Assembly (NCBI GenBank): GCA_041750795.1 | Contig: JBGSYQ010000368.1 | Span: 1-60,749, forward strand | Length of the DNA: 60,749 bases | Origin: Pirellulales bacterium | GTDB lineage: Bacteria > Planctomycetota > Planctomycetia > Pirellulales > PALSA-1355 | Reading direction: 5' to 3' | Shown: positions 1,207-53,872 of the stretch, one piece after another | Numbering within the stretch: position 1 is the stretch's first letter | Layout of the letters: every line of letters starts with the position of its first letter | Made by a program: the position numbers and the translations under genes | The notes under the pieces: generated by a model | Database searches by the model: none | What the model saw: only the letters and a program-made list of their open reading frames with translations | What the model was told of the DNA's origin: nothing

Positions 1207-1587
1207 CTATTTTTTCCGCATTTCGCGGAATCCGGGCGATTCGGCCAACGTAAAGACCACCACCTCTTCGCCGGTCGTGGTGCTAATGTCGTGGTGCAAG
1301 CTCAAGACCTTGACACCAGTGATTTCCTCGACCATAGCCTCCATGACCGGCCTCGCGGTTTCGATCAGATGGGTCCGCACCTGCTTGAGTAAATCTCTTC
1401 CTTTTTCCGGCTGCAGCGTTTTGACCAAATGCTTCTCGGCCGCGGTCAAGACCCCGTGCAGGCGAACCACCAGGCAATCGTTAAACAGATGCGCATGAAT
1501 CTGCTGAGGTCCCCGGCCCATGTACTCTTGCTCAAATCGGTTGAGGCAATCGCAAATGGCAGCTTCGATTTCTCCTTGTGTTTTCAT
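1207..1587 (-). CDS. DUF2294 (MpsC-like) family protein
   Basis: MKTQGEIEAAI...EYMGRGP...VVRLHGVLTAAEKHL...SLHHDISTTTGEEVVVFTL; GAGG RBS before ATG at 1587. Confidence 0.85.
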   Translation of the reverse strand: MKTQGEIEAAICDCLNRFEQEYMGRGPQQIHAHLFNDCLVVRLHGVLTAAEKHLVKTLQPEKGRDLLKQVRTHLIETARPVMEAMVEEITGVKVLSLHHDISTTTGEEVVVFTLAESPGFREMRKK

Positions 1588-2006
1588 GACGACCTCAGCC
1601 AACGACCATACGCAGCAAGCGCACACTCCAGGCGCAAAAAGGCTGCTAATTGGAAATCAATGGAGGATACCGCTCAATCCAGCTCCGCACCAACCGAAAC
1701 CGCTTGATTTTAACCGCCGATTGGACTCCAAAGAAGGCCTGTCGGCCAACTGGTGCCATTTCGAATCCTGATGCCAGCGCACCGGCGCTCGATGGCGCCG
1801 GCGTCGGTGCCCTCATCGAGTATAGCCATGCGGACGACAGCGATGGGCCCCCAAAAGCCGGATTCGACCGGCTCATCAGCTACGACGCACTCACCGACTT
1901 GCTGCGGCAGCGCGGCCGGTGAAATCGGCCGCGTTCGGACGCTACTTGCGACTCCCTCGATCGGCTGGCGTAAACAATGATATTCATCGAATTGTTGAGG
2001 TTTCTT

Positions 2007-2035
2007 TTGCTTTCCATCGGTGTGTGCGATATAGT
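2007..2035 (+). promoter_or_regulatory. sigma70-like promoter
   Basis: TTGCTT-N17-TATAGT upstream of leader RNA copy 1. Confidence 0.55.
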
Positions 2036-2093
2036 TGTGTAGCGAGCCAGCATGAGTTGGATTGCTCTGGCTGGCAAGAACGCGATCTGAATC

Positions 2094-2200
2094 GTCGGAC
2101 GACTAACTGAAGGGCAGCCCGGCCTCGGCCGGATGGCCCATTAACGAGTAAGCCGACGTGGTGGAAGACCTTCGGGTATTCTGCCACGTCGGCTTTTTTT
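2094..2200 (+). ncRNA. Candidate cis-regulatory leader RNA (riboswitch/attenuator-like), copy 1
   Basis: Near-identical copy at 5285-5390 with unrelated flanks; 5' GTCGG can pair with CCGAC in the 5' arm of the terminator. Confidence 0.7.
2151..2200 (+). terminator. Intrinsic terminator inside a 5' leader
   Basis: ~20-bp stem AGCCGACGTGG...CCACGTCGGCT capped by C(TTCG)G and ending in a T7 run, 44 nt before the csbD start. Confidence 0.85.
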
Positions 2201-2244
2201 GCGCGGTACTCTCGACAACCTCTAGAGCAACAGGAGTCGTCATC

Positions 2245-2421
2245 GTGGGTGGCAAGACAGACGTGGCGAAAGGCCGAATCAAGGAAGCCGCGGGCGTATT
2301 GACCGGCAATGCGAAGCTTCGCGCCGAAGGCAGGACCGACCAGTCAGTCGGCAAAGTCAAGCAAGTCGCCGGAAGAGCCCTCGGCAATGTCAAGCGAAGC
2401 GTGAAAAAACTGCGCGACTGA
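2245..2421 (+). CDS. csbD: CsbD-family general stress protein
   Basis: MGGKTDVAKGRIKEAAGVLTGNAKLRAEGRTDQSVGKVK; AGGAG RBS before the GTG start. Confidence 0.85.
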   Translation: MGGKTDVAKGRIKEAAGVLTGNAKLRAEGRTDQSVGKVKQVAGRALGNVKRSVKKLRD

Positions 2422-2507
2422 AGCGTGCAATGCGCCAACGCGAATAGGGAGTTGGTACGAGGCCGTGGCCGAAGCCGACTTGGTTTAATCAACGAAGGGG
2501 ATCGAAA

Positions 2508-2600
2508 ATGGACAGTACTACTCTGATTATATTGATCGTCGTGTTGTTCCTTCTGTTCGGCGGGGGCGGCGGCTACTATTGGCGCCGGGGACGGAGTTGA
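2508..2600 (+). CDS. 30-aa single-TM microprotein with GGGG motif and basic tail
   Basis: MDSTTLIILIVVLFLLFGGGGGYYWRRGRS; AAGGGG RBS; paralog at 12716-12802. Confidence 0.7.
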   Translation: MDSTTLIILIVVLFLLFGGGGGYYWRRGRS

Positions 2601-2676
2601 GCGTCCCGTGTCATGAATACGGTACTAGCTGGCTGTCGTGCGGGCAACTTCTTCACATCTTTGTCGGGAATGGCGT

Positions 2677-3483
2677 ATGAGAGTTACGCGTTACTCGGTT
2701 AGTTTGTTGGCGGCGCTGACCATGTGGCTGGTTGCCGGCCCGGCGCCAACGCGCGCCGCCGATGAACCCAACGCCCGGCCCAATAACCTGGCTTCGGAGT
2801 ACCTCGTTCCACAAAGCGAAATTGTCGCGATTCGCCTGAGTATCGTCGACGAGAAGCTGGCTCTGAGTTGGGCGGTTGAAACGCACATCCAGATCGAGTT
2901 GGCGACGTTCGCGCTGGCTGGCATCCGTCACGAAGACGTGAAGGACTTCACCGAGAGAAAACTGCAGCACTACCGGCAGGTGTTCAATACCCTGGATGAG
3001 TTGACTGGTGGCCGGGCAGGCAAAGTCTTGGCGCGCGCGACGCGCAACACCGGGGTGAAGACAACCAGTGACAATGCTGCTGCAACGGCGGGCAACTCCA
3101 GGCCCGCCCGGCGCGGCCGCAAGGGAGGAATTGGCGCCATCGTGCAGAATGCCACCGAAAACGCGATTCTTCGCGTCCGTCTGGCAATAGGACAGGAGTA
3201 TGCTCAATTGCTGCGGGTCGAGCTTGAAACGTCGCCGCCTGAAGAGTTCGATCGCCGCTATGCTTCTGTTGAAGGCTTTAACCAGATGCAGGTGTTGGCC
3301 ACGCTGCGCGTGTTCGAGCAGCAAGCATCGCCCGGGTTCGCGCAAATTGTTCATCTGGCGACGGTCGCCGCCGAATCGCAGGCCAGTGAGGGTCGCCAAG
3401 TGATCGAACAATTCAAGAATCTGCCGCTAGCGCCGCCCGTCAACGCCGGGAACGTGGTGAGTGCGGCCTTAGAGAAGTCATAG
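2677..3483 (+). CDS. Secreted protein, distant DUF4142/ferritin-like
   Basis: Signal peptide ending PTRAA-D; helical IELATFA...EDVKDF and FDRRY...LATLRVFEQQAS segments. Confidence 0.55.
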   Translation: MRVTRYSVSLLAALTMWLVAGPAPTRAADEPNARPNNLASEYLVPQSEIVAIRLSIVDEKLALSWAVETHIQIELATFALAGIRHEDVKDFTERKLQHYRQVFNTLDELTGGRAGKVLARATRNTGVKTTSDNAAATAGNSRPARRGRKGGIGAIVQNATENAILRVRLAIGQEYAQLLRVELETSPPEEFDRRYASVEGFNQMQVLATLRVFEQQASPGFAQIVHLATVAAESQASEGRQVIEQFKNLPLAPPVNAGNVVSAALEKS

Positions 3484-3523
3484 TCGGTCGAAACCAGACC
3501 AGCACAAGAAGCGAGACGCTCGA

Positions 3524-4039
3524 GTGGTACTCAGAGAATCTGGCGATGTTGGACGAAATGCTGCGCCGCGACCACAAGAGTGTGTCGTCGATCACGTAGT
3601 CATTTCGGAGCAAGTGCTGGTCGAGCACCAGGTTTTGGCGCACATTCTCAGCGCGCTGCGCGCGACTATTGGTTGGAGGTTTCAACGGGCGGATCTCACC
3701 AGAAAAGTCGCGAGTCTGCGGTTTGTCGGACAATCGCTGCAGCGACATCTCAAGCATTTGATGGGTCTCGAAGAGGAAGACGGCTATATGTTCGTGATCC
3801 TGGAGTCTCGACCGGAATCGAGTGATGAAATCGAGGCACTACGACAGGAGCACGGCCAACTGGGCAAGGGTCTGAGTCGCATTCTGAGGAGGTTACGCCT
3901 CGTCCAGACCACAGACGCCTTGGCGCTCGGCAATATCTCGGAGGATCTGCTGGCGCTCTTGGAAAAGCTGGACGAGCACAGCCACAAAGAAATGGGCCTC
4001 ATCCAACACGCCCTGTTGGACGAAGGCGGAGAAAGGTAG
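3524..4039 (+). CDS. Hemerythrin/HHE-like protein (start uncertain)
   Basis: EH...RHLKHLMGLEEEDGY...LRQEH...EHSHKE pattern of metal-binding His/Glu. Confidence 0.65.
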   Translation: MVLRESGDVGRNAAPRPQECVVDHVVISEQVLVEHQVLAHILSALRATIGWRFQRADLTRKVASLRFVGQSLQRHLKHLMGLEEEDGYMFVILESRPESSDEIEALRQEHGQLGKGLSRILRRLRLVQTTDALALGNISEDLLALLEKLDEHSHKEMGLIQHALLDEGGER

Positions 4040-4108
4040 TCAGGCCGACCAGGCTTTCGTGTCTATTGACGGGCGCGCAAGAGGCAGCGGATCTGCTAGC
4101 GGCCGACG

Positions 4109-4324
4109 ATGAGAATGATCATGCGCTGTTGGATGTTCGAACGCTGGCGTTGCTACTGGCAGGGGCACCGCGATTTATCGCCGACCTCAAGCTACGGCGG
4201 CTTGCTCGCCGAAGGTCGCGTGCGTGATCTGCGTTTCTGCGCTGCCTGTGATAACTACGTCTGGATGGAGCGTCCGCGGAATTCCGTCGAGCTGCTTCCG
4301 GCGTGGGAGAACCTGAATGTCTAG
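4109..4324 (+). CDS. Small Cys/Trp-rich hypothetical protein
   Basis: 71 aa, CxxxGH and CAAC motifs, co-oriented within the operon. Confidence 0.4.
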   Translation: MRMIMRCWMFERWRCYWQGHRDLSPTSSYGGLLAEGRVRDLRFCAACDNYVWMERPRNSVELLPAWENLNV

Positions 4325-4354
4325 TTGGCACGATCAACTCACGGAGCACATTCC

Positions 4355-4627
4355 ATGGCACGGGGCGCGATCCGGAAACTGGTTCAACTATCCGCGGGGA
4401 CGGAAATCCCCAGCACGCACCTGGTTGCGACCCACAATGGAGTGGGTTATGGCTATATTGGCACGCCCGCGGGAGATGTGTTCTTCGACGCCGCCGCGGT
4501 CAAGAACCGCCGTTTCGACCAACTAGCAGGATGTATGACGGTCGAGTACGTCTTGGACGATGCACCGTATTTGCGTTCGTCCAGTGTGACCGTGATCGAC
4601 GATCGAGCGGGTGTCGAGTCGATGTGA
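4355..4627 (+). CDS. Cold-shock-domain-like protein
   Basis: MARGAIRKL...GYGYI (RNP1-like)...DVFFD (RNP2-like)...FDQL..MTVEY; GGAG RBS. Confidence 0.65.
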   Translation: MARGAIRKLVQLSAGTEIPSTHLVATHNGVGYGYIGTPAGDVFFDAAAVKNRRFDQLAGCMTVEYVLDDAPYLRSSSVTVIDDRAGVESM

Positions 4628-4666
4628 ACGACGATTGGGACAACTTCATGTCCGGAGGCAGTAAAA

Positions 4667-4897
4667 GTGCTAGTTCCCTTGATGGCGATGGTGGGGCTGG
4701 GCATATGCGTCGCGTTCCTGGCGATCGCATTCTGGTACACGCAAGTGGGCCGGCGAACGTGCGGCGAATGTGGCGGCACTCTGCCCGTGATTCGCTTGGC
4801 CAGCAGATCCCAGGGTTCCGCATCGGGTGATTGGGCGTGTCCCAAGTGCGGTACCCGATTTGATCGTCATGGGCGGGTGCGCCAGTTTCCAACCTAA
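4667..4897 (+). CDS. Membrane-anchored zinc-ribbon protein
   Basis: N-terminal TM segment, CGEC and CPKC; GGAGG RBS. Confidence 0.55.
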   Translation: MLVPLMAMVGLGICVAFLAIAFWYTQVGRRTCGECGGTLPVIRLASRSQGSASGDWACPKCGTRFDRHGRVRQFPT

Positions 4898-4945
4898 AAC
4901 GATGATATTGAAGCAAGAAAGTTTGCCCGCGAGGGAAGGCGATTC

Positions 4946-5134
4946 ATGCAACTCTGTAAGTCGTGTCGATCTCTGATGATTGGCCAAGAGGCGGTCAAGT
5001 GGCTTCCGCGCCTCAAACACGTATTGCGACGTCATGGCGCCGGCGCGGAAACGCTGGCTGTCGTGGCGGACTCGCTCGGGCCGATGTGCGATAAATGCCG
5101 TAAGAACATGGATCAATCGATTCGTGAGGGCTAG
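4946..5134 (+). CDS. Small CxxC-pair hypothetical protein
   Basis: CKSC...CDKC, 62 aa, GGGAAGG RBS. Confidence 0.45.
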   Translation: MQLCKSCRSLMIGQEAVKWLPRLKHVLRRHGAGAETLAVVADSLGPMCDKCRKNMDQSIREG

Positions 5135-5200
5135 CTGCGATCGTGGAAGGGGAATCTATTGCTGAATTGCGACGAATAGCGCATCGCAGCCATTTGGCGT

Positions 5201-5228
5201 TTGCATTCCCTGACGCAAGCGCTAGAAT
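5201..5228 (+). promoter_or_regulatory. sigma70-like promoter
   Basis: TTGCAT-N16-TAGAAT upstream of leader RNA copy 2. Confidence 0.55.
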
Positions 5229-5284
5229 ATAGATGTTCGCGGAATGCCAGCCACTGGAAATGGTTTCCGCGGATTGTTGAGTTT

Positions 5285-5390
5285 GTCGGACGACTAACTA
5301 AAGGGCAGCCCGGCGGTGCCGAGCGGCTCGTTAACGGGTAAGCCGACGTGGTGGAAGACCTTCGGGTGTTCTGCCACGTCGGCTTTTTTT
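5285..5390 (+). ncRNA. Candidate cis-regulatory leader RNA, copy 2
   Basis: Homologous to 2094-2200; differences fall mainly in loops/mismatches or give G-U-compatible pairs. Confidence 0.7.
5341..5390 (+). terminator. Intrinsic terminator inside a 5' leader
   Basis: Same hairpin and T7 as 2151-2200; the single difference is at the unpaired stem position. Confidence 0.85.
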
Positions 5391-5433
5391 GTTTTGGTGG
5401 TGTGCGACGCCCGCCACCACAACGAGGATTTAT

Positions 5434-5853
5434 ATGGATAGCTCGAATTCGGCCATGGCGAAGCAGGTTGCCCTAGCAGCCTGCGATTTCGAACGGCGAC
5501 GGACGGGCAACTTGCCCCGCTCGGTAACCGTGGTGCTAAGTGGCGAGACGCTGGTGATCACGCTTCATGGTGCGTTGTCGCCGGCCGAGTTGGCGCTGGC
5601 CAAAAGTCCGGAGGGCGCCGCGCAGGTCCAAGAGTTTCACCGCCAACTGTTCGATAACTCCGCCGATTCCCTGCGGCAGGAGATCAAACGAATCACCGGC
5701 GTGGATGTGCGCGAAGCGGCTGTCGAAGTCGAACCGACGACCGGCACCGTCGTGAAGGCGTTCACAGCCGGCACTGTGGTCCAAGTGTTCCTGCTCGCCG
5801 ACAGCGTAACTGCCGGCACCTGGAGCGGGAGCGGGCGTGACGGTCAGAACTGA
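5434..5853 (+). CDS. DUF2294 (MpsC-like) family protein
   Basis: RTGNLPRSVTVVLSGETLVITLHGALSPAE...LRQEIKRITGVDV; GAGG RBS. Confidence 0.8.
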   Translation: MDSSNSAMAKQVALAACDFERRRTGNLPRSVTVVLSGETLVITLHGALSPAELALAKSPEGAAQVQEFHRQLFDNSADSLRQEIKRITGVDVREAAVEVEPTTGTVVKAFTAGTVVQVFLLADSVTAGTWSGSGRDGQN

Positions 5854-5870: not shown

Positions 5871-6056
5871 ATGTTGGTCTTGACGAGAAAAAGCCAGGAG
5901 TCCGTTGTGGTCGGAGGGTCCGATCGTTTCCAGTCCATTTTGAAAGTCAAAGTGCTCGAGATTCGGGGTGAGAAAGTGAAACTGGGTTTTGACGTCGATG
6001 CCGATGTTCCAGTCCATCGTTTGGAAGTGTGGGAACGCATCAATGCTGGCGGCTAG
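5871..6056 (+). CDS. csrA: Carbon storage regulator CsrA-family protein
   Basis: MLVLTRKSQESVVVG...VKVLEIRGEKVKLGFD...VPVHRLEV; GGAGG RBS. Confidence 0.85.
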   Translation: MLVLTRKSQESVVVGGSDRFQSILKVKVLEIRGEKVKLGFDVDADVPVHRLEVWERINAGG

Positions 6057-6370: not shown

Positions 6371-6660
6371 GCATCCGCCGGAAGAGCGGATTGGACAACC
6401 TGAATCACGATGCTGCTCAACCCAGTACCAAATATCACGCGGCGGGAAGTACTCACAAGTACGGAGCGATCGGCCGCGAATGAGATCGTAGAGGCGGAAG
6501 GGGCGCTGCGTTCGATGACCCGGAGTGGTCGCACGACAAGCAACACGAGGTGGCACGACCGCCCCTGGGGCCGTCCGCAGCGCCCTCTTTCCTAACCGTG
6601 GCCAAATTAATCGTGATTCTCGGAAATGATTTTGCCCTTATTGCAAATTTGAGGTGACCT

Positions 6661-6807
6661 ATGTTGTGGACCATCCTGCTTGTCGTATTGCTGTTGTGGG
6701 CATTGGGATTTGGATTCGGTGTTGGGGGCGGGTTAGTTCACGCTCTCCTGGTCATCGCGGTCGTGGTGTTGCTCTTCAACGTTCTTCAGGGACGCCGACT
6801 CGCGTAG
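6661..6807 (+). CDS. lmo0937-like small membrane protein, copy 1
   Basis: MLWTILLVVLLLWALGFGFGVGGGLVHALLVIAVVVLLFNVLQGRRLA; GAGGTG RBS; not in the ORF track. Confidence 0.85.
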   Translation: MLWTILLVVLLLWALGFGFGVGGGLVHALLVIAVVVLLFNVLQGRRLA

Positions 6808-6892
6808 GTTGGTTCTTGGATCGAGTGACTTGATGCACAAACACGACTGACAGTAGCGGAAGCATTCGGCGCCGCACATTTTTCAGAAAAGG

Positions 6893-9199: not shown

Positions 9200-9351
9200 C
9201 CCCCAACCTCCCTATTAGTAGAGCCACACGATGAAACCAATCGCATCCTCGGCTTTCGGTTGGGCGACAGATGCCGACTTGGCGAGACAGGCGCGGCTCT
9301 TTCTGAGCGCGAACGATCATTTTTATTCCTCTGCCAATTTTGAGGTGACCT

Positions 9352-9498
9352 ATGTTGTGGACCATCTTGCTTATCTTGCTGGTGATGTGGGCCTTGGGAC
9401 TCGGGTTCGGCGTCGCGGGTAGCCTGGTCCATATTCTCCTGGTGGTCGCGCTCGTGGTGCTGGTCGTCCAGGTTCTGCAGGGACGCAGAGTGGGCTAG
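9352..9498 (+). CDS. lmo0937-like small membrane protein, copy 2
   Basis: MLWTILLILLVMWALGLGFGVAGSLVHILLVVALVVLVVQVLQGRRVG; same TTTGAGGTGACCTATG RBS context as copy 1. Confidence 0.85.
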   Translation: MLWTILLILLVMWALGLGFGVAGSLVHILLVVALVVLVVQVLQGRRVG

Positions 9499-9568
9499 TT
9501 CGGGGTGAAATCGTCCGGGGGCAAACGAGCGGGAGTCGGATTACATGCGCTTTTAGAAAGGAACACCA

Positions 9569-12401: not shown

Positions 12402-12448
12402 TCGGTGAACATAATTGAAACTATCTTCTAGTTGAAGGAGACACGATC

Positions 12449-12601
12449 ATGGGTGGCAAGAAAGACGAAATCAAAGGCAGAATCAAGGAAGCCGCCGGCG
12501 CGCTGACCGGCAATGACCAGCTTCGTGACGAAGGAAAGGCTGACCAGGTAGCGGGCAAGGTCAAGCAAGTCGCCGAGAAGGCCATCGACAAGGTCAAGTG
12601 A
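12449..12601 (+). CDS. csbD: CsbD-family protein, copy 2 (shortened by a premature TGA; homologous frame continues to 12625)
   Basis: MGGKKDEIKGRIKEAAGALTGNDQLRDEGKADQVAGKVK; AAGGAG RBS. Confidence 0.85.
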   Translation: MGGKKDEIKGRIKEAAGALTGNDQLRDEGKADQVAGKVKQVAEKAIDKVK

Positions 12602-12715
12602 GCCGTGAAGGAGTTGGGCGACTGAAAGGCAATTCGCAATGCGCGAACGCGACGCGTAACCGTTGCGGAGGCGTGGCTGAATTCGGTTTGTTTCACTCAC
12701 CAAAAGGGAAAGATC

Positions 12716-12802
12716 ATGAACAACACCCAGCTAATCATCTTGATCCTCGTGTTGCTCTTTCTGTTCGGCGGTGGCGGCTTTTTTTGGAGCCGCCGAAGGT
12801 AA
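12716..12802 (+). CDS. 28-aa single-TM microprotein, paralog of 2508-2600
   Basis: MNNTQLIILILVLLFLFGGGGFFWSRRR; AAGGGA RBS. Confidence 0.7.
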   Translation: MNNTQLIILILVLLFLFGGGGFFWSRRR

Positions 12803-33520: not shown

Positions 33521-33671
33521 GCAGTCTTTTGAAAAATGCCATCGTGGCATTTTTCAACCTCGCCAAGTGCGAAGCAAAGCTTCGCACGGCTCGCAAAATA
33601 ACGACTTGCGTCGCTATTTTGTCATCGCGTCCGTGCGATGTCACAGCCCGTCGAATTCTTCCCCGGGCTGC
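33521..33671. mobile_element. 151-bp MITE/REP-like palindromic element, copy 1
   Basis: TA-flanked, imperfect TIRs, internal hairpins; same-length homolog at 53722-53872. Confidence 0.75.
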
Positions 33672-34429: not shown

Positions 34430-35977
34430 ATGAGTAAGCTCCCCAGAAAAGCTCAAGGTCGAGATCGAGTCAAGATTCGGCAGTTGCCCACCGGCGTACC
34501 GGGCCTTGATGAAATCCTCGGCGGCGGCCTGCCCGAGTACTCGTTCAACATCATCGCCGGCGCTCCCGGAAGCGGCAAGACGACGCTGGCGCACCAGATC
34601 ATGTTCGCCAACGCCACCCCAGAGCGGCCGGCGCTGTACTTCACCGTGCTGGGCGAGCCGGCCATCAAGATGCTGCGCTACCAGCAGCAGTTCGAATTCT
34701 TCGATGATACCAAAATGGACGGATCGATCCGCTTCATCAACCTCAGCCAGATCGTCCTGGACCAGGACCTCGGCGCGGTCCTGGATGCCATCGCCAAGGA
34801 GCTCGAGACGTCCCAGGCGCACATTGTTGTGGTGGACTCCTTCCGCACTGTGGTGCGCAAGGCGCAAGGCAACGTGAGCGAGATGGAGCTTCAGGGGTTC
34901 GTCCAGCGTCTGGCGCTCCATCTGACCAGTTGGCAAGCGACCACGTTCCTGATCGGCGAGTACGTCGAAGGCGAACTGCGCGACAACCCGGTCTTCACCG
35001 TGGCCGACGGGCTGTTTTGGCTCTACCAGAACGTCGAGCGCAATTCGATCGTGCGTAAGATGCAGGTCATGAAGTTGCGCGGCCAGGCGTCCGTGCCCGG
35101 CCTGCACACCTTCCGCATCACCGACGCCGGACTGCAAACCTTCCCGCGCACCTTCGGCCTCGTCGGAGAATCGGGACAGATGAAGGGTCGGCGGCGTCTT
35201 TCCACCGGCATCGGCGAGCTCGATGCGCTGCTGGGCGGCGGCGTCCCCGAGGGCGACAGCCTGATCCTGGCCGGACCTTCCGGGTCGGGCAAGTCCACGC
35301 TCGGCTCACACTTCATCGCTGAGGGGTTGCGCCACGGCGAGCCGGCGATCGTGGCCGTCTTCGAGGAGATACCGGCCGAGTACATCCAGCGGGCCGCCGC
35401 GCTCGGCTTCGACTTCGGCACGCCCCAGAAAAACGGCACCCTCAAGATTATCTATCTCCGGCCGCTAGACCTCTCCGTGGATGAGACCGTGCACGAAATC
35501 GTCAACAGCGTCAAAAAGCTCGGCTGCAAGCGGCTGGTCATCGACTCGCTGGTCGGCTTTGAGATGGCGCTGGCGCCCGGCTTCCGCGCCGACTTCCGCG
35601 AGTCGCTGTACCGGATGATCGCGGCCCTTACCCGCCTGGGCGTCACCATCATCAGCACCGTCGAGGTCGCGGAGGACTTTACTTCGCTGAATCTGAGCAA
35701 CTTCACCGTCTCGTTCCTTGCCGACGACATCGTGCGCTTGCGCTACGTCTCGATCAACGGCCAACTCCGCAAGATGCTGATGGTGGTGAAGATGCGGCGC
35801 AGCAAGCACAGCATCGACATGTGCGAATACCAGATCACCTCCAAGGGCGTGGTCATTGACAAGCCGCTGCGTGGCTACCGCGGCCTGACCAGCGGCATCC
35901 CTGCCCCCTGGTCATTCCAGTCCGAGGACATTCCTCAATTGCGAGCCGAGGCTGAGGAAGACAATCCCAATGGATAG
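34430..35977 (+). CDS. KaiC-like tandem RecA-fold ATPase
   Basis: Two P-loops (GAPGSGKT, GPSGSGKS), VVDS/VIDS, KLRG/KMRRS. Confidence 0.9.
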   Translation: MSKLPRKAQGRDRVKIRQLPTGVPGLDEILGGGLPEYSFNIIAGAPGSGKTTLAHQIMFANATPERPALYFTVLGEPAIKMLRYQQQFEFFDDTKMDGSIRFINLSQIVLDQDLGAVLDAIAKELETSQAHIVVVDSFRTVVRKAQGNVSEMELQGFVQRLALHLTSWQATTFLIGEYVEGELRDNPVFTVADGLFWLYQNVERNSIVRKMQVMKLRGQASVPGLHTFRITDAGLQTFPRTFGLVGESGQMKGRRRLSTGIGELDALLGGGVPEGDSLILAGPSGSGKSTLGSHFIAEGLRHGEPAIVAVFEEIPAEYIQRAAALGFDFGTPQKNGTLKIIYLRPLDLSVDETVHEIVNSVKKLGCKRLVIDSLVGFEMALAPGFRADFRESLYRMIAALTRLGVTIISTVEVAEDFTSLNLSNFTVSFLADDIVRLRYVSINGQLRKMLMVVKMRRSKHSIDMCEYQITSKGVVIDKPLRGYRGLTSGIPAPWSFQSEDIPQLRAEAEEDNPNG

Positions 35978-53721: not shown

Positions 53722-53872
53722 GTTGTCCGTTGAAAAACGCCTCGTGGCATTTTTCAACCTCGCCCCAGTGCGGAGCAGCTCCGCACGGAAGCGCAAAAAT
53801 AACGACTGGCGTCGCTATTCTCTCATCGCATCCGTGCGATGGCAGAGCCTGTTGCATGTTTCAACCGGCTGT
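53722..53872. mobile_element. 151-bp MITE/REP-like element, copy 2
   Basis: Shares TCGTGGCATTTTTCAACCTCGCC, AAATAACGAC, GCGTCGCTATT and TCCGTGCGATG with 33521-33671. Confidence 0.75.

Follow-up and report, generated by a model that had tools for sequence, protein, structure and literature searches.

A probable attenuator RNA linked to mpsC in planctomycetes and Bacillota

We describe a leader RNA that is likely to be a real, uncatalogued attenuator of a known general kind, found in more than one phylum and likely to have a new protein partner. Two copies lie in the window, by which we mean the whole stretch of 60,749 nucleotides analysed here (contig JBGSYQ010000368.1 of a Pirellulales bacterium). 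An earlier note, made from the letters of that stretch, had put them forward as an ON switch controlled by a ligand or a protein. The cis-acting leader and, as a folding prediction, the ON logic stood up to comparative analysis; as to the controlling agent, the comparative data lean towards a protein, MpsC/DUF2294, over a ligand. The element combines, in a 5′ leader, a terminator with an antiterminator that excludes it, which places it among the attenuators.

Results

Two leader copies in the window

The two structured copies are present where they had been placed, at 2094-2200 and 5285-5390, and align with 88.9% identity over 108 nt (E 1e-33). Their flanks are indeed unrelated, with no alignment between them except for a TATAG stretch. 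The count of two proved too low for the genome, which carries five copies, the three others being on contigs C95 and C401. The start codons of the first genes lie 44 nt (copy 1) and 43 nt (copy 2) past the U7 tract, in agreement with the earlier reading.

Of the sigma70-like -10 boxes reported for both copies, one was recovered by a promoter scan, in which 1.5 matches were expected by chance and one was found. This likely sigma70-type promoter of copy 2 (TTTGCA-17-TAGAAT, 5200..5228, + strand) is also in line with a family-wide enrichment described below. The likely promoter of copy 1 (TTGCTT-17-TATAGT, 2007..2035, + strand) was read from the sequence and falls under the threshold of the scan; a copy on contig C95 has a promoter with a -35 element and spacing identical to those of copy 1 and a different spacer. 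Between promoter and motif there is an extra hairpin, a different one in each copy (2045-2076 and 5236-5274).

In transcripts ending before the 3′ arm of the terminator, the 5′ half of both copies folds as it had been drawn, on a GUCGG/CCGAC basal helix, with a z of -3.1 in copy 1 and a weak -0.6 in copy 2. Folds, covariation and loop conservation together delimit the predicted antiterminator hairpin of copy 1 to 2094..2157 (+ strand). Here, GUCGG (2094-2098) pairs with CCGAC (2153-2157), followed by a 3x3 loop of ACG (2099-2101) opposite AAG (2150-2152), a helix of ACU (2102-2104) and AGU (2147-2149), and a variable apical stem above. The proposed intrinsic terminator was likewise supported by folding (15+3 bp round cUUCGg, one mismatch, -32.4 kcal/mol, z -7.8). 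In copy 1 it occupies 2152..2200 (+ strand), with its stem at 2152-2193 and the U7 tract at 2194-2200, and shares 2153-2157 with the antiterminator. Copy 2 has the same layout, with a predicted antiterminator at 5285..5347 (+ strand; GUCGG 5285-5289, CCGAC 5343-5347, loop ACG/AAG) and, by folding, a terminator at 5342..5390 (+ strand; stem 5342-5383, U7 5384-5390). Neither the UUCG tetraloop nor the UUAACG segment, the latter singled out in the earlier note as kept between the copies, is conserved among homologues.

The first gene behind copy 1 is a CsbD-like general stress gene (2245..2421, + strand; PF05532, E 7e-13). Divergent from this copy lies a gene for a type A MpsC/DUF2294 protein of 126 residues (1207..1587, - strand; PF10057, 133 bits; model pLDDT 95.7), which keeps the basic residues of the family and is a candidate RNA-binding regulator. 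Copy 2 is followed by a type B MpsC/DUF2294 gene (5434..5853, + strand; PF10057, 67 bits), whose product belongs to a divergent clade without the conserved basic residues, and then by a CsrA-family gene (5871..6056, + strand; PF02599, E 6e-16).

The window holds several other repeats. A second cassette of csbD and a small membrane protein gene (12436-12778, 73-76% identical to 2232-2570) has no leader in front, and duplicate genes for a DUF5670 small membrane protein (6644-6812 and 9335-9503) have similar upstream sequences. Another two-copy repeat, of 76 nt and 82% identity with a short inverted repeat at its start (33595-33670 and 53796-53871), may represent a second leader or a site for a regulator. 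Finally, 34488-35251 contains an internal 50-nt repeat, which we take to reflect the two halves of a KaiC-like ATPase gene; elsewhere, KaiC genes sit behind the leader.

A covarying RNA family in planctomycetes

By BLAST, 20 of the 40 relatives searched carry the element, and a covariance model, R1, built from 30 copies, all from planctomycetes, returned the same 20. Strong R1 matches were present in 5 of the 150 genomes of a phylum-wide sample. A pattern scan of GTDB contigs gave at least 128 loci (80 with flanks) and, among the matches listed, strong R1 matches were confined to planctomycete-titled records. Overall, at least 119 distinct copies were collected, and 116 of 119 entered the fold statistics, three not being parsed. 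Pair counts from alignment A6 were left out, as 39 of its 104 rows are weak and mostly reverse-strand partial matches. Copies are grouped in stress-gene islands; one genome (G010) has 24 matches, including reverse-strand partial ones.

With homologues collected, a model built and downstream genes tabulated, the stems were found to covary and the copies to be oriented 5′ of genes, as expected for the leader proposed earlier. Across the 30 planctomycete copies, 94.8% of cells were paired and two-sided changes occurred at 17 of 32 pairs, a value reached in none of 500 shuffles. The covarying regions are the apical stems and the terminator; the basal GG/CC gives no covariation signal because it is near-invariant in the planctomycete set, where it must pair both ways. 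The consensus of the hairpin is the conserved 3x3 loop in its helical frame, GG-AHG-AC / GU-AAG-CC. The loop letters are AUG, ACG or AAG in 109 of 116 copies, with AAG on the opposite side in 106 of 116.

Folding of the homologues also predicts the mutually exclusive antiterminator and terminator, with CCGAC common to both, that the earlier note had drawn from two copies. The pair probability of GG/CC exceeds 0.5 in 97% of transcripts ending after CCGAC and falls to a median of 2e-7 at full length, where the terminator is favoured over the antiterminator by a median of 9.35 kcal/mol (116 copies). A promoter-like TTG..-10 pattern occurs upstream of 45 of 115 copies, against two in the 115 control windows and 4.1 in shuffled sequences, and its position peaks about 55 nt before the motif.

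Genes behind the leader and linkage to mpsC

The commonest first gene downstream is the mpsC-B paralogue (27 of 119 copies, taken from the gene list; a separate count of 17 is likely too low because of domain boundaries). Other first genes encode CsbD, BON, YflT, DUF1328, DUF3309, transglycosylase-associated, MscS, fasciclin, ice-binding, KaiC and ribosome hibernation proteins, a glycosyltransferase and a desaturase, a set that from general knowledge of these families we take to be a general-stress regulon. Pfam was run on 50 chosen planctomycete ORFs out of 117, and 16 of the 50 had no match; the gene calls are heuristic and several picks were in the wrong frame. A conserved His/Ala-rich protein of 69-70 aa with no Pfam family is often found behind the leader (L260:18659-18865, L267, L269, L263, L276).

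In the window genome, all four PF10057/mpsC genes lie within 4 kb of a copy of the element. Among the 40 relatives, 17 have both RNA and mpsC, 3 the RNA only, 2 mpsC only and 18 neither, such that MpsC/DUF2294 is present in 17 of the 20 RNA-positive relatives. In one of the two genomes scored as mpsC only (G035), a short variant whose inner stem is compensated (GG-AUG-GUC / GAC-AAG-CC) lies 400 nt behind mpsC; in the other (G001), 75 nt separate mpsC from the end of its contig. In the 150-genome sample, mpsC occurs in 15 genomes, which include four of the five with strong RNA matches. Seven of the remaining 11 mpsC genomes carry a short variant (GG-CAG-AU-type or similar) beside mpsC, and the other four have no variant near it.

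The association has its exceptions. A true exception is G003, a single-contig genome (91% complete) in which a copy is intact and a search at E<=1 found no MpsC; in three draft genomes (G022, G029 and G095) the RNA is present and no mpsC was found. No mpsC lies within 1.5 kb of 42 of 88 planctomycete copies, and in 33 of 102 mpsC is upstream of or divergent from the RNA, and hence linked to it but outside its control. The RNA and its neighbour may be passed on together as a single cassette, and related genomes are not independent observations.

The same architecture in Bacillota

Leaders of the same build are found behind mpsC in Bacillota; one of them reads GG-GAG-AUCUUC / GAAGAU-AAA-CCGAC and runs into a terminator. 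At three loci (L199, L222 and L224), tandem antiterminator hairpins share one terminator, followed by ndhF/mpsA. The planctomycete-only model R1 matched Bacillota leaders beside mpsC with E values of 2e-9, 2e-7 and 4e-6. In 28 Bacillota leaders, the two pairs adjacent to the loop are always paired where letters are present, and they covary (AU 19 / UA 8 and CG 10 / UA 10 / UG 8). The bases that are invariant across the phyla are few, namely GG, one G, one A and CC.

Of 36 terminators lying directly 3′ of mpsC, 25 agree with a descriptor of the motif, a count that is partly circular, as the descriptor was written after many of those leaders had been seen. Controls gave 0-8% (2/26 on the opposite strand, 3/57 in far flanks, 0/55 at unrelated loci and 18/882 in the window genome). 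At the Nostoc locus (L182) there was no match, and a motif picked out by eye behind mpsC at two other loci (L181 and L183) was dropped, being confirmed by neither the descriptor nor R1.

A second model, R2, was built from the Bacillota leaders and run on other genomes. In 40 Bacillales genomes it gave six matches at E <0.001, all followed by a terminator, all in mpsC-positive genomes, and all preceding mpsA/ndhF, Sbt_1 or DUF6671. A search for the RNA alone in 151 Bacilli genomes returned 22 matches in 19 genomes, three of which had been seen earlier. By the terminator rule applied, 18 of these matches are followed by a terminator, and 20 lie ahead of the bicarbonate transporter genes mpsA/ndhF or Sbt_1. 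Furthermore, mpsC is within 1.5 kb of 17, within 5 kb of 21 and on the same contig as all 22. Every one of the 16 RNA-positive genomes that were new carries mpsC, and the 30 genomes negative for mpsC gave no match; with a strict filter, mpsC is also present in 34 of 64 RNA-negative Bacilli, many of these genes being of a lower-scoring subfamily. Where mpsC is the last gene of an mpsAB operon, the RNA lies at the operon head. R2 found nothing in the window, and detection across the phyla thus works in one direction only, from R1 to Bacillota.

No csrA is obvious among the long ORFs round the Bacillota loci (lists of >=90-100 aa, in which short genes could be missed). Weak R2 matches, divergent from mpsC, lie ahead of kdp K+ uptake operons at two loci (L304:8894-8956, - strand, E 0.09; L306:2732-2794, + strand, E 0.007), and the kdp locus of genome G340 also carries a c-di-AMP riboswitch. 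A distant MpsC subfamily has a GG-NNG / AGA-CC leader (L208, L210, L211 and L213), and the genes behind it look to us like zinc alcohol dehydrogenases.

The MpsC protein

Type A proteins share G24-R25, E51, K68, R71 and D100 with the Bacillota proteins in a residue table. Type B forms a long-branch clade with Q68 and H71 in 29 of 30 members and T42 in 30 of 30; the tree was quick, with long branches, and served only to delimit this type. In some type A proteins a fused receiver domain precedes the MpsC part. In alignment A4, all 51 rows match PF10057, one also matches a receiver domain and none matches CAT. The median net charge of MpsC is about +1.

The type A model has the order alpha-beta-beta-alpha-alpha-beta-beta. 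A Foldseek search with it returned nothing at E<=0.001 (best 0.03), and its weak rows, TRAPP/H-NOX/YslB-like and ribosomal chains, were left out as evidence. Sequence searches of solved structures with the protein and with the 51-row profile found no relative, and ESM Atlas gave no usable match beyond PF10057. With respect to known RNA-binding antiterminators, MpsC has no ANTAR Pfam match and its RNA is not a dual hairpin, there is no HutP match in Pfam or among the listed fold matches, and the MpsC proteins linked to the RNA have no CAT domain.

Comparison with catalogued RNAs

The earlier note had recognised no described riboswitch class in the element, and a search of the window against Rfam 15 likewise gave no matches at the gathering threshold. 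Within 1900-5600 the best candidates, both below threshold, were only ALIL (E 0.07) and sR14 (E 5.7), and the leaders of 20 Bacillota loci gave none. Nor did any Rfam mobile-element family reach threshold, and the flanks differ between the copies. Ends of the form AAC...GUU, as in the Rhodopirellula-1 motif, we take to be reminiscent of integron attC sites. In the accessible alignment rows of supplementary file 5 of PMC2864571, Rhodopirellula-1 starts with AAC and ends with GUU, and comparison by eye with these rows ruled out its identity with the element; the accessible part of a table in the same paper lists it without an Rfam number.

The literature searched contains no description of the motif and no RNA role for MpsC/DUF2294, although some supplements might hold the motif under another name. 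The accessible portions of the main texts of PMC11109978, PMC8632094 and 10.64898/2026.10.21.760802 do not mention MpsC or DUF2294, and a search for ndhF in the accessible part of the PMC2965389 supplement gave cyanobacterial ndhF rows only. Short RNAs have been listed in the position that the element takes up in Bacillales, at the start of ndhF/mpsA: B. subtilis ncr181 (adaB-ndhF; PMC2965217) and S. aureus RsaX05 ('cis-acting leader of ndhF?'; PMC2790875). The accessible table rows carry no structure or mechanism, and position alone suggests that these RNAs may be the same element.

Discussion

The target genes differ between the phyla while mpsC is constant, and the simplest account is therefore that the product of mpsC reads the RNA. 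Since it is the antiterminator fold alone that contains the conserved loop, and the gene order is hutP-like, type A MpsC would act as an activator. We propose, with belief and doubt in about equal measure, that the leader is a transcription attenuator in which type A MpsC binds the 3x3 loop and blocks termination, much as HutP or LicT do at their own leaders. The antiterminator hairpin is predicted to form first during transcription and to be displaced by the terminator unless it is stabilised, which would make the default state OFF. MpsC-A is our candidate for the stabiliser, acting through the 3x3 loop to allow read-through. In Bacillota its gating signal might be inorganic carbon, pH or ion status; in some planctomycetes the signal might come through the receiver domain. 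More speculatively, type B, made behind the attenuator and without the basic residues, could damp type A as a feedback. Counting against the proposal are the G003 copy in a genome with no MpsC, the normal growth of S. aureus ΔmpsC, an MpsC model that resembles no known RNA binder, the median net charge of about +1, and the many mpsC genes beside which no RNA was detected.

A small-ligand riboswitch, in which bicarbonate, an ion or a signalling molecule binds the loop and mpsC is only co-regulated or co-inherited, is in our judgement the less probable account, albeit one to be taken seriously. Its layout, an aptamer over the base of a terminator, would be that of the Na+-I ON switches as far as the accessible part of PMC9337991 describes them. 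The Bacillota targets have a common theme, with 20 of 22 matches before bicarbonate transporters and weak ones before kdp, and G003 has the RNA without mpsC. In addition, according to the accessible part of PMC6689103, mpsA of S. aureus is 1.7-2.5-fold lower in 5% CO2, while a ΔmpsC mutant has no growth defect, which is hard to reconcile with an activator that is strictly required, provided that the leader in staphylococci is the same element. On the other hand, the RNA is a single unbranched hairpin with few bases invariant across the phyla, and the planctomycete targets are stress genes and not carbon genes. Moreover, mpsC is often linked to the RNA without being under its control (33/102), and mpsC-negative Bacilli have no match (0/30).

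The same linkage would arise if MpsC bound the element with the opposite sign, the antiterminator persisting kinetically until a high signal led MpsC to promote termination. We regard this as unlikely. It would fit the predicted early formation of the antiterminator, the growth of the ΔmpsC strain in air, and the finding, in the accessible part of PMC6689103, that mpsAB complements E. coli without mpsC. However, binding to a 3x3 loop that exists only in the antiterminator fold should stabilise that very fold, and the unaided terminator is already favoured by about 9 kcal/mol. Least probable of all, in our view, is that another factor (CsrA, a cold-shock protein or an sRNA) governs the element, or that we are dealing with no more than a terminator, or with a repeat carried along by a mobile stress island. 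The csrA gene behind mpsC-B in the window and the grouping of copies in stress islands, with the 24 matches of G010 including reverse-strand partial ones, speak for such readings. Yet a plain terminator would need neither covarying 5′ stems nor a fixed loop, the element tends to have its own promoter upstream (45/115 versus 2/115), the flanks differ between copies with no Rfam mobile-element family at threshold, and the long ORFs round the Bacillota loci include no obvious csrA, although short genes could be missed.

Extending the activator reading to the whole family, we suggest, with somewhat more doubt than belief, that the PF10057 proteins (MpsC/DUF2294/YbcI) make up a new antiterminator family that binds RNA, is unrelated to CAT, ANTAR and HutP, recognises a hairpin with a 3x3 internal loop, and senses inorganic carbon or ion status. 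It would serve bicarbonate and K+ uptake in Bacillota and act as a master stress switch in planctomycetes, with up to about 17 leaders per genome and a binding-dead paralogue as a brake. If correct, this would give a function to a widespread orphan family whose Pfam name, a Na+-translocating system, is not supported by the genetic study as far as the accessible part of PMC6689103 goes. It would also add a further class of RNA-binding antiterminator, hint at a way in which Bacillota adjust bicarbonate uptake to CO2, and mean that a planctomycete general stress response is run by attenuation. Should the element prove to be a riboswitch instead, it would be a candidate sensor of bicarbonate or ion status.

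RAT hairpins are shaped by internal loops. Like the element, the RAT hairpins recognised by BglG, SacY and LicT lie over a terminator, with a default OFF state and a multi-copy regulon (PMC12591593, accessible part); in contrast, MpsC has no CAT or PRD domain, the targets here are not sugar genes, and the element has no Rfam match. ANTAR proteins, as covered in the accessible part of the same source, resemble MpsC in having a small output domain, sometimes behind a receiver domain, that acts on several leaders, but recognise two short hairpins in place of one long hairpin, and MpsC has an alpha/beta fold and no ANTAR Pfam match. The Na+-I riboswitch (DUF1646 motif; PMC9337991, accessible part) shares the ON-switch layout, with a sensing fold over a terminator, and ion-related targets; it differs in having two stems, the base of P1 and the loop of P2 being conserved, and the element here has no Rfam match. 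Rhodopirellula-1 is likewise a multi-copy planctomycete hairpin with a proposed cis-regulatory role, but has the pattern AACAA..GCAC-CGG..CGGUGA..CGUU and no terminator attached in the rows compared (PMC2864571, accessible part). Finally, HutP of B. subtilis forms a hexamer that, together with histidine and Mg2+, recognises NAG repeats in single-stranded RNA (PMC12591593, accessible part), whereas here the RNA is a hairpin with a 3x3 loop and MpsC matches PF10057 only. The hutP-hutH region is nonetheless alike in its arrangement of a small gene, a terminator and the regulated genes, an order that recurs in Bacillales as mpsC, leader and transporter.
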